A stretch of 64,000 nt of DNA. Source: Candidatus Doudnabacteria bacterium (GTDB lineage: Bacteria > Patescibacteriota > Doudnabacteria > UBA920 > O2-02-FULL-48-8). The stretch spans positions 447,698-511,697 of the forward strand of contig JBBCGO010000001.1 of assembly GCA_037200925.1 (NCBI GenBank), read 5' to 3'. The translations under genes were made by a program, and so were the position numbers. The notes under the pieces are model-generated. The model was not told the DNA's origin. It did not search any database and saw only the letters and a program-made list of their open reading frames with translations. Positions 21,655 to 24,084 of the stretch are shown here, one piece after another. Each line of letters opens with the position of its first letter. Position 1 is the first letter of the stretch.

Positions 21655-24084
21655 TTACGGGCTCATCAATACCTGGATCGACTGATTACCAGAAATATTA
21701 AGACTGTTCACCGAGAATGGCTGATAACCTGGTAGTGTCACGTCCAAACTATAATTATTGTCAGCGGTTAACCCGCCAAAGCTTGTTTGTCCGGGGGTTG
21801 CGCAGCCGGAAACATAATTGATCGCAACACTTGTCAAAACCGGAGTTTGCAGGCTATCAGTCGTGGCCAGAAATGCTTTATACCGGATATAGCGGTCGTT
21901 ATTGTGAATGCTTGCAATGTTGGTTCCTGAAACGGTGTAGTAAGTTCCTGCCGTGCCGTCAGGCCCCATAAAATTCCAAGTGGCGTTATCGGAATTACTG
22001 GCGATCTGGAACTTGAGGCTGGTTGCCGGGTTTTGGGAAGTCGGGTTCCAGGTCAGAGTGGTAAAATTTGAAGCGCCGCCGGTATCGAACGTGGAAGAAA
22101 CCACTTGCCCGGAAGCTACATAATTCCCTGAAATATTTTTCAATCTGATCCCGGTCGGCAGAGAGCTGTTGTCAATATTTCCGTCATCGGCAAAGTAGCG
22201 GGTCGCAGCCGCAAAATCAGTCTGCCCCGGTCCGCCCGTCCAGTCGCTTTGCACCCAAACGCTGCCGCCCGTGGTCCCGTTAAAATCCTGAGGAGTCGCG
22301 CCGCCTCTGTGCAAATGCACACCCGCCCCTGCAAGCGCATTGCCCGTGCCTGAATCCTTTACGATCACCAAAAGGCTGTTCGCAGTCTGAGTTCCCAGGA
22401 TCATGGTGAACGTCTGGTTGGCTGCCGGCAGCACGCTGATCTGCTGGATGGGCGAAGTGCCGACTACCATCAGATTCTGGCCGGTAAGCAGGGTCGGGGT
22501 GTAGTTGTCCCATTCCAAATTATTCAGAGCGATCAATCCTGCCGAAGAAGTCAGGTTATTGTTGTATTTCAGAACATTCGGGGTAAGGCCGATCAATTTT
22601 GCCCCTGTCAGGTTTACTCCGACATTGCTTAGCGCGCTGCAGGTGGAAGGACCGCTGGCACCGAGGGTAATGGTATCGGTGTCCAATGTCACAGCGCCGT
22701 TGCGTGCGAGCATCCGGCCGCTAACATTGACGCCGGTCGTAACTGTAATGGATGTTAAGGCCAGGACATTTCCTGCGAAGTTGGAAAAAGTTCCAAACGT
22801 TGCTGAACTGCCGACCTGCCAGAAAACATTGCAAGCCTGAGCGCCGTTTATGAGACTGACGCTGCTCGCCCCTGCCGTGATAAGGGTTGATGCAGCTTTG
22901 AAAATAAACACCGCATTCGGATCGCCTTGGGCATTAAGCGTCAGAGTTCCGGTGATCCCAAAAGTTCCGGAAGCGGAATCATATACCCCTGCTGTCTCTG
23001 TAGTTCCGCCAAGTTCTGTGGGAATTGTAGAAGTAGTAGATTGTCCTGCAGCATTATTATAGGCTGCGACGAGGTCTGTTTTCGCTTGAGCAGCCGTTGA
23101 ATCAGCCACATGCTGTGCCCCATTGACCGTGCCGGGGGGAAAGCCGGTAACTGAAGTGCCGGGACTTAAGCCCAGATCCCCGTTGATGCCGCTGGAACCG
23201 GTATTGGTTATGGTCGAGCCGGCCAAAACCGCAAAACTGCCGGCAGTTCCCAGATTTACTTGCGCAGCGCCGCAGGTGGAACCGGTGGCGCCGAGGGTCT
23301 TGATGGTAAGTTTGCTGAACAGATCAATAGAAAAACTGACTAACGTCACCTGGCTGTTGACTATAGTCGGGTCAGGTTTGGTCGGGTTGGGATTCGCTAC
23401 CGTTATCGGGTAAGTCTGGTCGGTAGAGTATCCTGCTTTCGTTACTACAATATGATAGATGTTCACTCCGGGGGGCAAGCCAACTTCCACCCAGTTGCCG
23501 GATGAATCAGTAGTGCGGTCGAGGATTATTGTTCCGGCAATGTTCTGGATATGGACGGATGCTCCGGCAATTGGTTGTCCTGTTGCGTCAAAAGCTTTGA
23601 TCCAAAGCGCGCCGGCATTGACAGTGCCTTCGAGACCAAAAGGGGTGATGTTGCTTGAAAAAGATCTGACCACACCGGTAGTCATATTTTGTATGTTCAG
23701 CTTCACCTGTTTATAATCATCCGGAGCGGCATCAGTGCCCAAAAGAACCGTGCCATCTGCCGGATCATCCACAAAAGTCACTTCATAATAGACCTGATAA
23801 TTAATACCTTCGATGACGATTGTCGCGGGCGTTACGTCATCGGGCAAAACACCAATCGGATTGCCGTGCGCTGTTCCGACCTGGCTATAAGCCAGGTTTC
23901 TGACCACTTCCAGATAATTGGTTGCAAGGCTCGCTATCGTAGTTTGTTCCCGGGAGGCCCGAACGCTCCTTGTCATAACCGAAACAAGACCGATCACTCC
24001 GACCAGCAGAACCGCAAATATGGCTATCGCCACCACCATCTCAATTATCGTAAATCCGTAGCTATTTTTTTTAAATTTAAGCAT
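21655..24084 (-). CDS. Large type IV pilin-like protein (809 aa) with an ice-binding-like DUF3494 domain
   Basis: Prepilin N-terminus [15 protein letters not shown]. Central [65 protein letters not shown] matches the DUF3494 signature. Confidence 0.75.
   Translation of the reverse strand: [809 protein letters not shown]

Follow-up and report, generated by a model that had tools for sequence, protein, structure and literature searches.

Modular pilins are the accepted account of how simple filaments gain many functions. A modular type IV pilin is a single polypeptide in which a pilin module is combined with at least one domain whose role is not confined to pilus biology, and Streptococcus sanguinis PilB (vWA module) and PilC (ConA-like lectin module) are described examples (Raynaud et al. 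2021, PMC8179133). The catalogue of 264 modular-pilin architectures in that work lists IPR012902-PF13620 as the third most frequent, with many entries from candidate phyla, and PF11999/IPR021884, the ice-binding-type DUF3494 domain, is absent from it. ComZ of Thermus thermophilus (6QVI), a competence minor pilin, contains an internal β-solenoid thought to be a tip-located DNA receptor (PMC8179133). Nanosynbacter lyticus TM7x has two minor pilins proposed as tip adhesins, PilX1 (jelly-roll, lectin-like) and PilX2 (β-propeller), and efficient binding to the host requires PilX2 (Grossman et al. 2024, PMC11623550). The single-domain DUF3494 proteins EfcIBP (6EIO) and AnpIBP (7BWX), which have no capping head, are free, secreted Antarctic proteins with measured thermal hysteresis. 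The ice-binding fold of Marinomonas MpIBP is unrelated to DUF3494. In Shewanella frigidimarina SfIBP_1 and in MpIBP, a cell-anchored chain of Ig-like β-sandwiches displays an ice-binding domain outward (cited in PMC9957290). PilX_N together with DUF3494 (pfam14341_pfam11999) has an entry among the Arctic Ocean ice-binding proteins of Winder et al. (2023, Table 1; PMC9957290); as a general idea, a pilin-type ice-binding protein is therefore already catalogued. In the literature we found no paper that treats the combination of DUF3494 and a pilin in a meaningful way.

The window, a 64-kb stretch of Candidatus Doudnabacteria DNA, encodes P0001, a modular minor type IV pilin of 809 aa. Its ATG open reading frame spans exactly 21655..24084 on the minus strand, on which all features described here lie, and the translation is a 100% match to a protein of the NCBI MAG. 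The plus-strand reading of the same interval was rejected, its translation being full of stops. PF07963, PF13620 and PF11999 occur together in this single ORF, and P0001 is thus a modular type IV pilin by the published definition. The earlier note had described an 809-aa protein at 21655-24084 with a prepilin leader, a hydrophobic N-terminus and a DUF3494 domain about 250 aa later. The ORF matches exactly, though on the minus strand, and both domains are recovered above their profile cutoffs.

The 34 N-terminal residues include a short basic leader, Gly at position −1, Phe at +1, Glu at +5 and a hydrophobic stretch of ~20 residues, and a 15-residue segment forms the canonical prepilin signal with its cleavage and methylation motif. 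Pfam N_methyl (PF07963) matches aa 6-30 with E 1.4e-7 and 31.2 bits (cutoff 21.2), and NCBIfam TIGR02532 scores 22.5 bits (cutoff 16.3). From this motif, the 10-residue class III leader (aa 1-10, 24055..24084) is predicted to be cleaved after G10 by prepilin peptidase. The pilin module (aa 11-155, 23620..24054) starts with F+1, carries E+5 and comprises an N-terminal helix and a four-stranded head sheet. In the AF2 model (m07d9cf755a59) the helix covers aa 13-62 and the strands aa 87-91, 94-105, 124-133 and 139-146, with pLDDT ~85-95; the extended helix and antiparallel sheet are the features of the pilin 'lollipop' fold. A sequence profile of the part of P0001 outside the DUF3494 domain, searched against the PDB, has N-terminal helices of pilins (7TGG, 9LAA and 9LAB) as its only matches.

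This part of P0001 is a minor-pilin scaffold of ~600 aa conserved across Patescibacteria, with thousands of homologues at 55-78% identity. It had been taken for a long Thr/Gly-rich β-like sequence; instead, it is a conserved multi-domain structure with pLDDT >90 for aa 20-266 and 482-809 in a model built with scaffold depth only. The size, called unusual in the earlier note, is indeed so for pilins in general but not within this family, in which ~600 aa is normal. The scaffold HMM of 607 positions runs collinear with P0001 on both sides of the DUF3494 domain (hmmsearch), aa 4-280 matching HMM positions 13-291 and aa 480-808 matching positions 277-606, and all of 120 scaffold sequences have the cysteines C482 and C761. 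Between the pilin head and the DUF3494 domain sits a CarboxypepD_reg-like (prealbumin-like) β-sandwich of aa 158-266 (23287..23613, pLDDT >90), which the earlier note did not mention; PF13620 matches it at aa 166-235 with E 8.5e-10. The C-terminal scaffold of aa 483-809 (21658..22638) is all-β, is modelled with pLDDT >90 and contains the invariant C761. In the model it apparently consists of a sandwich at ~482-565, followed by a second CarboxypepD_reg-like sandwich split by a nested β domain of ~140 aa, and scaffold homologues show C-terminal partial matches to CarbopepD_reg_2/PEGA. Foldseek matches of the scaffold to the Gram-positive pilins and adhesins 6FWV, 7VCN and 5HTS have rmsd >20 Å, reflect tandem Ig-like domains only and were rejected.

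The DUF3494 domain is an insertion into this conserved pilin, since the thousands of homologues are almost all without it, which also settles whether pilins in relatives share the insert; in the alignments, homologues of ~600 aa at 57-78% identity have no counterpart of aa 265-481. PF11999 (Ice_binding) matches aa 286-473 over the full model, positions 1-208 of 208, with E 1.4e-61 and 208.2 bits (cutoff 28.7), and the best solved relative is 6EIO (phmmer, E 2.3e-53); chance matches would score nowhere near these values. NF045625 'ice-binding protein' (the IBP_CFB equivalog) scores 97.9 bits against a cutoff of 400; P0001 is outside that equivalog and belongs only to the wider DUF3494 superfamily. 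The inserted module, an IBP-1-fold β-solenoid, covers aa 272-472 (22669..23271). It is bordered by two copies of a duplicated target motif. The left copy, TLGATGSTC at aa 263-271 (23272..23298), includes C271 and was located by comparison of the border DNA and protein. The right copy, placed by alignment at aa 473-482 (22639..22668), includes C482, the column of the family-invariant cysteine. MAFFT put free-standing ice-binding proteins on scaffold columns when they were aligned together with 85 or 25 scaffold rows, and the full protein (with scaffold depth) and the module were therefore modelled separately. The insert has pLDDT of 30-60 in the full-length model and at least 96 over aa 272-476 in the separate one, a discontinuous triangular β-solenoid braced by a long helix (aa 329-347). 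All 31 significant Foldseek matches of this model are DUF3494 ice-binding proteins, including 6EIO (TM 0.90 at 1.1 Å) and AnpIBP (7BWX/7BWY, TM 0.96-0.97 at 0.9-1.1 Å). Tapirin (4WA0 and 6N2B, E 0.08-0.3) was rejected as a relative, as its Foldseek matches are not significant.

The orthologue P0002, from the unrelated run SRR20217201, is 78% identical to P0001 and carries the same insert at the same insertion site, with the border duplication TLGSTCS / TLPGSTCS. In a database of 5.8 billion clusters, only three pilins with a DUF3494 module, P0001, P0002 and P0003 (GCA_039931165.1), are found among the matches listed, and all three have the class III signal motif. P0003 has a different DUF3494 module at a different loop, which argues for two independent captures. 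Its insert is 39-46% identical to that of P0001, while the scaffolds are 72-75% identical, and the inserts of P0001 and P0002 group together without it in 50 of 50 bootstraps. For these reasons a single capture followed by intragenic relocation is unlikely, if not strictly excluded, since nothing among the matches listed is closely related to the insert of P0003. Free-standing proteins of 250-380 aa share 75-80% identity with the P0001 insert. An LPxTG-like motif with a hydrophobic stretch and a basic tail, the sortase-anchored type, ends 48 of 120 such relatives, and the closest named ones belong to the mesophilic soil actinomycetes Kitasatospora, Streptacidiphilus and Actinomadura. The module has an extra cysteine, C418, common to this soil and candidate-phylum subfamily. 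It is very probable that a complete DUF3494 domain was inserted in one small Doudnabacteria lineage, with duplication of ~8-10 target residues. The insertion point is the linker between the first and second β-sandwich, and the donor may have been of the free-standing, often sortase-anchored surface protein type.

P0001 resembles the known modular pilins (PMC8179133) in that a class III signal and pilin module carry a foreign functional module, probably presented at the tip, and its scaffold without cargo corresponds to the frequent IPR012902-PF13620 architecture. The class itself is known; the DUF3494 solenoid is a new cargo relative to the catalogue of 264 architectures. The mode of addition also differs. 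The modules of the S. sanguinis pilins are appended via a short linker, whereas that of P0001 is nested in an inter-domain loop, and the footprint of a duplicated target motif shows how the fusion arose. The Arctic Ocean entry, compared here by its table entry only, differs in having another pilin family, a simple two-domain arrangement and an origin in polar marine metagenomes. The module shares the fold of EfcIBP and AnpIBP, and structural alignment gives TM 0.90-0.97, rmsd of ~1 Å and 44-48% identity; unlike them, it is internal to a pilin, comes from temperate deadwood and is known from sequence. SfIBP_1 (6BG8), in which DUF3494 is combined with tandem β-sandwich domains, is a significant structural match (TM 0.78). 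P0001, however, would be anchored by a pilin helix within a dynamic filament and not by a membrane or outer-membrane anchor as in SfIBP_1 and MpIBP, and its ice-binding-type domain is nested, not terminal. ComZ is likewise a large minor pilin with a β-solenoid as internal insertion, but its solenoid type and insertion point are different, no sequence relationship was detected, and its Foldseek match to the module is not significant (E 0.9, probability 0.06). PilX1 and PilX2 of TM7x are, like P0001, Patescibacteria minor pilins with bulky accessory domains. Outside Saccharibacteria their conservation is poor (10-25% coverage); the P0001 scaffold, by contrast, maintains its identity of 55-78% across several classes.

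Pilus machinery is located directly upstream of P0001 (24358..29722) and includes pilB (27974-29722; TIGR02538/TIGR02533), pilC (26657-27868; GspF/PilC), pilM (25520-26608; PF11104), pilN (24966-25523; PF05137) and a pilO-like gene (24358-24969), followed by a small ORF (24090-24434). The order of the machinery genes is the same in L001, L002 and L004. A complete pilB-pilC-pilM-pilN-pilO locus had been proposed. The first four genes are confirmed by HMM, but pilO is assigned by position with no HMM match, and pilD, pilT and a major pilin were not found in the window by a prepilin-motif scan, a Walker A/transmembrane screen of ORFs of at least 150 aa and Pfam searches on part of the ORFs; 'complete' is therefore overstated. 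Downstream of P0001 are a minor pilin of 209 aa when intact (20982..21652, N_methyl match) and a 462-aa protein (19594..20982) with a weak PilX_N-like N-terminus (PF14341, E 9.8e-4, below cutoff). In 62 of 70 species genomes the big pilin is followed by a homologue of the ~209-aa pilin, and in 69 of 70 one of the ~460-aa protein is found downstream. The big pilin opens a conserved cassette of three genes, which in most other genomes stands apart from pilM/N. For candidate-phylum biology, this cassette points to a site where host or surface specificity may be engineered.

The ice-binding site of AnpIBP is made of seven B-face segments, and mutation of its S153 and T156 reduces activity (PMC7277481). 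All seven segments align with segments of the P0001 module, which define a putative B face of S290-T295, T310-T313, S372-T378, S399-A404, S426-G431, T444-T449 and G463-D468. Thr and Ser account for 20 of its 27 outward residues. S153 and T156 correspond to S426, kept in 121 of 122 relatives, and to T429, which is invariant. The outward B-face positions are the best-conserved, lowest-entropy surface of the domain (0.34 vs 0.77 bits). To our knowledge there is no diagnostic sequence motif for ice-binding sites, so this conserved Thr/Ser face is suggestive only.

We infer that a pilus-displayed surface-binding module, as the earlier note proposed, is the best-supported reading of P0001. Display on pili is likely. 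For the whole explanation, a pilus-displayed DUF3494 module with ice as ligand, we estimate a probability of about 0.5; ice as the physiological ligand is its weakest step and falls a little short of an even chance. Prepilin peptidase would remove the leader, and the N-terminal helix would polymerise into a pilus of the adjacent PilB/C/M/N machinery. Because a body of ~80 kDa cannot pack along the shaft, P0001 would most probably sit at the pilus tip, with its two cassette partners. The IBP-1 fold brings its first and last solenoid rungs side by side; the module can therefore plug into a loop and would jut out laterally from the stalk, leaving its flat B face exposed. The source habitat is deadwood of a temperate Czech forest and not a permanently icy one (PMC11613949). 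In seasonally freezing wood, the pilus would be the tether of a surface-bound ice-binding protein, holding ice at a distance or inhibiting recrystallisation around a very small cell, and the sortase-anchored relatives would act likewise on the cell wall.

The same architecture would also suit an ordinary pilus-tip adhesin whose flat face binds a biological or mineral surface, and this we regard as possible, if less probable than ice. Host envelope glycans (the bacterium being a presumed episymbiont) or a wood or fungal polymer would be candidate ligands. The temperate habitat and the mesophilic character of the closest named relatives fit such a ligand, and so does the cargo of other scaffold members, which is lectin-like or of adhesion type (Laminin_G_3, GH43_C2/DUF1349, BNR propeller, BACON, dockerin, TIG). 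The minor pilins by which TM7x binds its host, apparently through glycans, have large accessory domains (PMC11623550), and DUF3494 domains have also been described as substrate-binding or adhesive (PMC12337378). However, the module shares 48-57% identity with two ice binders proven by experiment, and its model superposes on them at ~1 Å. The conservation of its putative ice-binding face across phyla is unexpected for a host-specific receptor site, and the 75-80% identity that the module as a whole retains between phyla is easier to reconcile with an invariant ligand than with a host-specific receptor. The B face shows no evident aromatic platform of the kind typical of carbohydrate-binding modules, and in the literature we found no demonstrated non-ice ligand of PF11999 domains. 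For ice-binding-protein research, P0001 offers a testable case of whether a DUF3494 domain from temperate soil or wood organisms binds ice.

Beyond the modules listed above, scaffold members carry DUF2341, Flg_new or Fib_succ_major, and cargo is located at no fewer than six sites. With unrelated modules at so many sites, the scaffold is insertion-tolerant and a probable display platform. This same tolerance, together with the facts that the majority of the family works with no cargo at all and that DUF3494 is rare among the matches listed, leaves room for a module without a ligand role, such as a tolerated passenger, a structural spacer, a phage or protease shield or an antigenic decoy. Such a role is improbable. 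Purifying selection acts on the insert, with dN/dS of 0.17 at dS 0.68, comparable to 0.12-0.13 in the scaffold; the surface used for binding in homologues is its best-conserved part; and the second, independent DUF3494 capture at another loop argues for a selected function. Returning to ice as the ligand of a pilus-displayed module, a broader proposal is held more tentatively: the scaffold may be a general tip display platform, loaded repeatedly and independently with different binding modules, which in Doudnabacteria would have captured DUF3494 twice, at two loops and from two donor lineages, and given the first ice-binding type IV pilus. If so, the filament would anchor the cell to ice, or carry a coating that inhibits recrystallisation, where a temperate habitat freezes seasonally. 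A single Patescibacteria pilin of unusual conservation has been loaded many times with different modules, the two independent DUF3494 captures included, and a natural design for filament display of DUF3494 domains is suggested.

The least credible explanation, a chimeric assembly or mis-called gene that joins a pilin gene to an unrelated ice-binding protein gene, could appeal to the metagenome co-assembly as source and to an assembly-level or population-level 41-bp duplication in a neighbouring gene, but is already effectively refuted by a single uninterrupted ORF with scaffold sequence on either side of the insert, by recovery of an identical P0001 gene from both the NCBI HiFi co-assembly and, for one run, an independent Logan assembly (L003, L004), by the same insertion site in P0002 from an unrelated sample at dS ~0.7-1.2, and by conserved synteny (L001, L002 and L004). 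The 41-bp duplication is in tandem and frameshifts the downstream minor pilin gene here, while this gene is intact in L004. The MAG protein that matches P0001 at 100% is named 'ice-binding family protein' (Candidatus Doudnabacteria) by NCBI.

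There is firm support for the 809-aa protein P0001 being a modular minor type IV pilin whose scaffold is found across Patescibacteria and in which a module of the IBP-1 fold is nested and selectively maintained. Its open reading frame starts with ATG and occupies window 21655..24084 on the minus strand. The earlier note had these coordinates right, but the gene is actually on the minus strand; the plus-strand reading of the interval was rejected, its translation being full of stops. The protein opens with a class III signal: a short basic leader with Gly at -1 precedes a hydrophobic helix that has Phe at +1 and Glu at +5. 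This signal scores above cutoff for both Pfam N_methyl (31.2 against 21.2 bits) and TIGR02532 (22.5 against 16.3 bits), which bears out the prepilin leader and hydrophobic N-terminus first noted from the sequence. A CarboxypepD_reg beta-sandwich is found at aa 166-235 (Pfam, E 8.5e-10). The DUF3494 signature, for which an HMM search had been suggested, proved to be a complete match to PF11999 (Ice_binding/DUF3494) at aa 286-473 (model positions 1-208 of 208, 208 bits, E 1.4e-61). The 25 matches of a PDB sequence search are all DUF3494 ice-binding proteins, with EfcIBP (6EIO) at the top (E 2.3e-53). At NCBI, a protein named 'MAG: ice-binding family protein [Candidatus Doudnabacteria bacterium]' matches P0001 with 100% identity; it is encoded on a 964-kb JBBCBH contig. 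JBBCBH is the co-assembly, from PacBio HiFi reads, of four metagenomes of Fagus sylvatica deadwood sampled in the Zofinsky prales reserve, Czech Republic (PMC11613949). An independent Logan assembly of one of the four deadwood runs contains the gene in identical form.

A search of 5.8 billion protein clusters gave more than 4,800 significant homologues of P0001. Patescibacteria account for nearly all of the best 120, with prepilin-type proteins 580-650 aa long in which PF07963 and PF13620 occur and PF11999 is absent; these are 57-78% identical to P0001 over the common parts. The aligned homologues are without exactly aa 265-481 of P0001. Only one of them shares the insert, namely P0002, an orthologue from another sample with 78% identity; the earlier note had proposed looking for such relatives. 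With the scaffold alignment, AlphaFold2 models aa 20-266 and 482-809 mostly with pLDDT above 90, so what was described as long Thr/Gly-rich beta-like sequence outside DUF3494 is instead conserved scaffold. The model includes an N-terminal helix of 50 residues, the pilin head sheet, the CarboxypepD_reg sandwich and about 330 residues of beta structure past the insert. Because of the strand pattern, and of partial C-terminal matches to CarbopepD_reg_2 and PEGA in homologues, we infer that this last part may comprise two successive sandwiches, of which the latter, CarboxypepD_reg-like again, is split by a nested beta domain. Cys482 and Cys761 are invariant in the 120 sequences. Against the PDB, the scaffold profile matched nothing but pilin N-terminal helices, and Foldseek with the scaffold model gave just loose matches, to Gram-positive pilins and adhesins with Ig-like domains in tandem. 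By the MAG labels of 80 species-representative genomes, the scaffold occurs in Doudnabacteria, Saccharibacteria, Staskawiczbacteria, Paceibacterota, Nomurabacteria, Zambryskibacteria and Adlerbacteria. Its identity across classes, 55-78%, is unusually high for pilins.

The insertion has left a footprint. A short motif stands at both insert borders of P0001: the left copy, TLGATGSTC (window 23272-23298, minus strand), ends with Cys271 and is followed by GAAQVNLG, and the right copy (22639-22668, minus strand) comprises 10 aa ending with Cys482 and is followed by SALS. The border DNA of the two copies is nearly identical. The borders of P0002 are likewise duplicated (TLGSTCS and TLPGSTCS), whereas uninterrupted scaffold members have a single TL-x-STC-SAL; about 8-10 residues of the target, the scaffold cysteine among them, were therefore duplicated on insertion. 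In P0001 and P0002 the motif copies are more alike within one genome than they are to their orthologous counterparts, which hints at gene conversion between the flanking repeats. Among the matches listed, free-standing DUF3494 proteins of 250-380 aa share 75-80% identity with the P0001 module, and the P0002 module, at 82%, is barely closer. In these free-standing relatives a signal peptide and DUF3494 come with a Pro/Thr-rich linker and with a Cys behind ..TITRAT. Of the 120 listed, 48 end as sortase substrates do, with an LPxTG-like motif before a hydrophobic stretch and a basic tail; others, from Kitasatospora, Streptacidiphilus, Actinomadura and Actinoallomurus, have a Big_3_5 domain. The donor was thus of a type tethered to the cell surface. 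Comparison of P0001 with P0002 gives dN/dS values of 0.17 for the insert (dS 0.68) and 0.12-0.13 for the flanking scaffold (dS 1.07-1.23), the insert dS being the lower. Selection has thus kept the module since the two lineages split.

A different DUF3494 domain is found in P0003, an 821-aa pilin of another Doudnabacteria MAG with the same gene order as in the window. PF11999 lies at aa 372-552, and the insertion is about 75 scaffold positions beyond the P0001 site, in the loop before ..QTFTMILG. The scaffolds of P0003 and P0001 are 72-75% identical; their modules are 46% identical by BLASTP and 39% over trimmed alignment columns. Among the matches listed, no relative of the P0003 module exceeds 54% identity. 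Neighbor-joining of 73 DUF3494 domains pairs the P0001 module with that of P0002 as sisters in 50/50 bootstraps, and the P0003 module meets them only at the root. Two independent acquisitions are the parsimonious reading, while a single capture followed by relocation and very fast divergence of the P0003 module keeps a small probability. The 240 listed matches of two domain-only searches include no pilin, and in 80 species-genome loci the ice-binding domain occurs at the P0003 locus only.

The scaffold also carries other cargos. An exhaustive search with its profile gave 6,390 cluster representatives at E <=1e-3 and 712 at <=1e-30. Most relatives are 580-620 aa long, and about 40 of the best 150 representatives have 640-1,440 aa, with the scaffold match split in 2-4 pieces or followed by an extension. 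Placed by local hmmsearch and Pfam and numbered by HMM position, at least six distinct cargo sites occur among the best 150 (P0241-P0369). The pilin head loop (about 100-125) is used in P0293, P0321, P0332 and P0344, site 240 in P0257 and site ~280 in P0001. Site 330-345 holds dockerin in P0333 and P0335, both of which also have BACON_2 downstream. Site 350-364 is that of the P0003 ice-binding domain and of DUF2341 with Laminin_G_3 in P0241, and site 395-402 is occupied in P0246 (DUF2341 with Laminin_G_3), P0299 (a BNR-type propeller of about 800 aa) and P0324. Position ~450-540 is the site in P0252 (GH43_C2/DUF1349, ConA-like) and in many proteins of 715-740 aa, and the scaffold C-terminus bears DUF2341/Laminin_G_3, Flg_new, Fib_succ_major or TIG. 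The long inserts of P0257, P0293, P0324, P0332 and P0344 have no Pfam match. By these domain assignments the cargos are lectin-like or adhesion-type, the ice-binding domain being one of many, and this conserved candidate-phylum pilin would serve as a scaffold for display at multiple sites. Modular pilins are an established and varied class; in a catalogue of 264 architectures the bare IPR012902-PF13620 scaffold is the third most frequent, and PF11999 is absent (PMC8179133). An architecture of PilX_N with DUF3494 is a table entry from Arctic Ocean metagenomes (PMC9957290), so a pilin-type ice-binding protein is not wholly unprecedented. Our literature search found no paper analysing a pilin-DUF3494 fusion. 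New are the nesting of the insert and the footprint that it left, the apparent double capture of DUF3494, and the view that the pilin displays cargos at many sites.

With a deep alignment made for the module alone, aa 272-476 of P0001 are modelled at pLDDT >=96. The structure prediction suggested at the outset places the module among DUF3494 ice-binding proteins, which make up all 31 significant Foldseek matches in the PDB (TM 0.90 and 1.1 Å for EfcIBP; TM 0.96-0.97 and 0.9-1.1 Å for AnpIBP). Both of these proteins are without a capping head. The ice-binding site of AnpIBP consists of seven segments of the flat B face, and its S153Y and T156Y mutations lower activity to 17% (PMC7277481). Carried over by phmmer alignment, the segments in P0001 are T310-S-V-T313, S290-T-I-T-N-T295, S372/T374-F-G-I-T378, S399-T-L-I-T-A404, S426-S-A-T-F-G431, T444-S-I-T-V-T449 and G463-A-V-T-L-D468. 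Counted from this alignment, Thr or Ser takes 20 of 27 outward positions in P0001 versus 11 of 27 in AnpIBP. S426 and T429 correspond to S153 and T156 of AnpIBP; T429 and S427 are invariant, and S426 is kept in 121 of 122 relatives. Entropy is 0.34 bits on the outward B face (the domain minimum), 0.40 in the inward core and 0.77 elsewhere. In the IBP-1 fold, beta1 and beta6, the first and last rungs, stack side by side as judged from segment order (PMC7277481), and both termini therefore exit at one end, a geometry that suits insertion into a loop.

We tentatively take ice as the ligand, with a probability of roughly 0.45. The module is close in sequence and predicted structure to two proven ice binders, nothing is missing from its putative ice-binding face, where Thr and Ser are even enriched, and the donors are surface-tethered, as are known ice adhesins. 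However, the source makes the habitat temperate forest deadwood and not an icy environment; the wood presumably freezes in winter, which is our assumption beyond PMC11613949. The nearest named relatives are mesophilic, no sequence motif is diagnostic of ice binding, and P0001 scores 97.9 bits against a cutoff of 400 for the NCBIfam ice-binding equivalog. Binding to another surface or a host ligand is a possibility to be taken seriously, as DUF3494 has also been called substrate-binding (PMC12337378) and other cargos of the scaffold are lectin-like. Against a host-specific receptor, the B face is the most conserved surface across phyla, which an invariant ligand fits better. A module with no binding role seems improbable. 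Ice binding by a pilus, if demonstrated, would raise the interest of P0001.

Upstream of P0001 on the minus strand, pilB, pilC, pilM and pilN have HMM matches; the pilO-sized gene beside them has none. A prepilin-motif scan, a screen for Walker A and transmembrane segments, and Pfam on part of the ORFs, each a partial screen of the 64-kb window, revealed no pilD, pilT or major pilin, so the claim of a complete pilB-pilC-pilM-pilN-pilO locus was overstated. Downstream are a second prepilin (20982-21652, minus strand; 209 aa when intact), a 462-aa protein with a weak PilX_N-like start and a 123-aa membrane protein. In species-representative genomes, homologues of the 209-aa pilin and the 462-aa protein follow the scaffold gene at 62/70 and 69/70 loci, whereas pilM/N adjoin it at only 2/55; the conserved unit is therefore a three-gene minor-pilin cassette of big pilin, ~209-aa pilin and ~460-aa protein (window 19594-24084; also loci L005-L084). 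Other prepilin genes adjoin the cassette at 1/62 loci only, and placement directly behind pilBCMN(O) is particular to the lineage of P0001. From what is established on modular pilins (PMC8179133) and on minor pilins of Patescibacteria (PMC11623550), we infer that prepilin peptidase would process P0001 and that its N-terminal helix would incorporate it in the pilus, most probably at the tip with its cassette partners, where the DUF3494 module would be exposed.

Some irregularities were seen in these loci. A perfect 41-bp tandem duplication (window 21292-21373, with the additional copy at 21333-21373) frameshifts the 209-aa pilin gene (20982-21652, minus strand) into ORFs of 145 and 99 aa. In L004, the Logan assembly of run SRR28211699, the unit occurs once and the gene is intact; the duplication is either a population variant or a co-assembly error. 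At the P0003 locus (L001), an added 202-aa prepilin gene (9375-9983) lies between a small ORF and the big pilin; it is absent from the window locus and from the P0002 locus (L002). The database entry of P0002 (789 aa) is called from an internal Met (L002 3865-3981). Its ORF runs on upstream with a normal prepilin motif, KGKSGAG/FTLVEMVV, so the true protein is longer, probably starting at a non-ATG codon.

Outside the pilus genes, a ComEC-type competence channel (54807-56318, minus strand; PF03772, E 1.7e-56, with DUF4131) is encoded some 30 kb away from the pilus operon, which fits the usual proposal that candidate-phylum pili take part in DNA uptake. Small stand-alone genes of nuclease type adjoin the operon, also on the minus strand: GIY-YIG (29808-30110, E 5e-14) and DUF559/MTES_1575 (32179-32538, E 3.5e-40). 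In L001, pilB and pilC are instead separated by a DUF559 gene and one of Avd-like type (23S_rRNA_IVP/bAvd). Pfam matches nothing in two large minus-strand ORFs, at 30420-32003 (527 aa) and 32759-35359 (866 aa). The product of the 527-aa ORF has a transmembrane or signal segment at its N-terminus and contains 13 consecutive glycines, and a 522-aa gene takes the equivalent spot upstream of pilB in L004 and in the NCBI HiFi co-assembly locus (L003). A 768-aa protein (38999-41302, minus strand) with four Lamin Tail Domains (PF00932, E 6.8e-59) is a probable surface protein.
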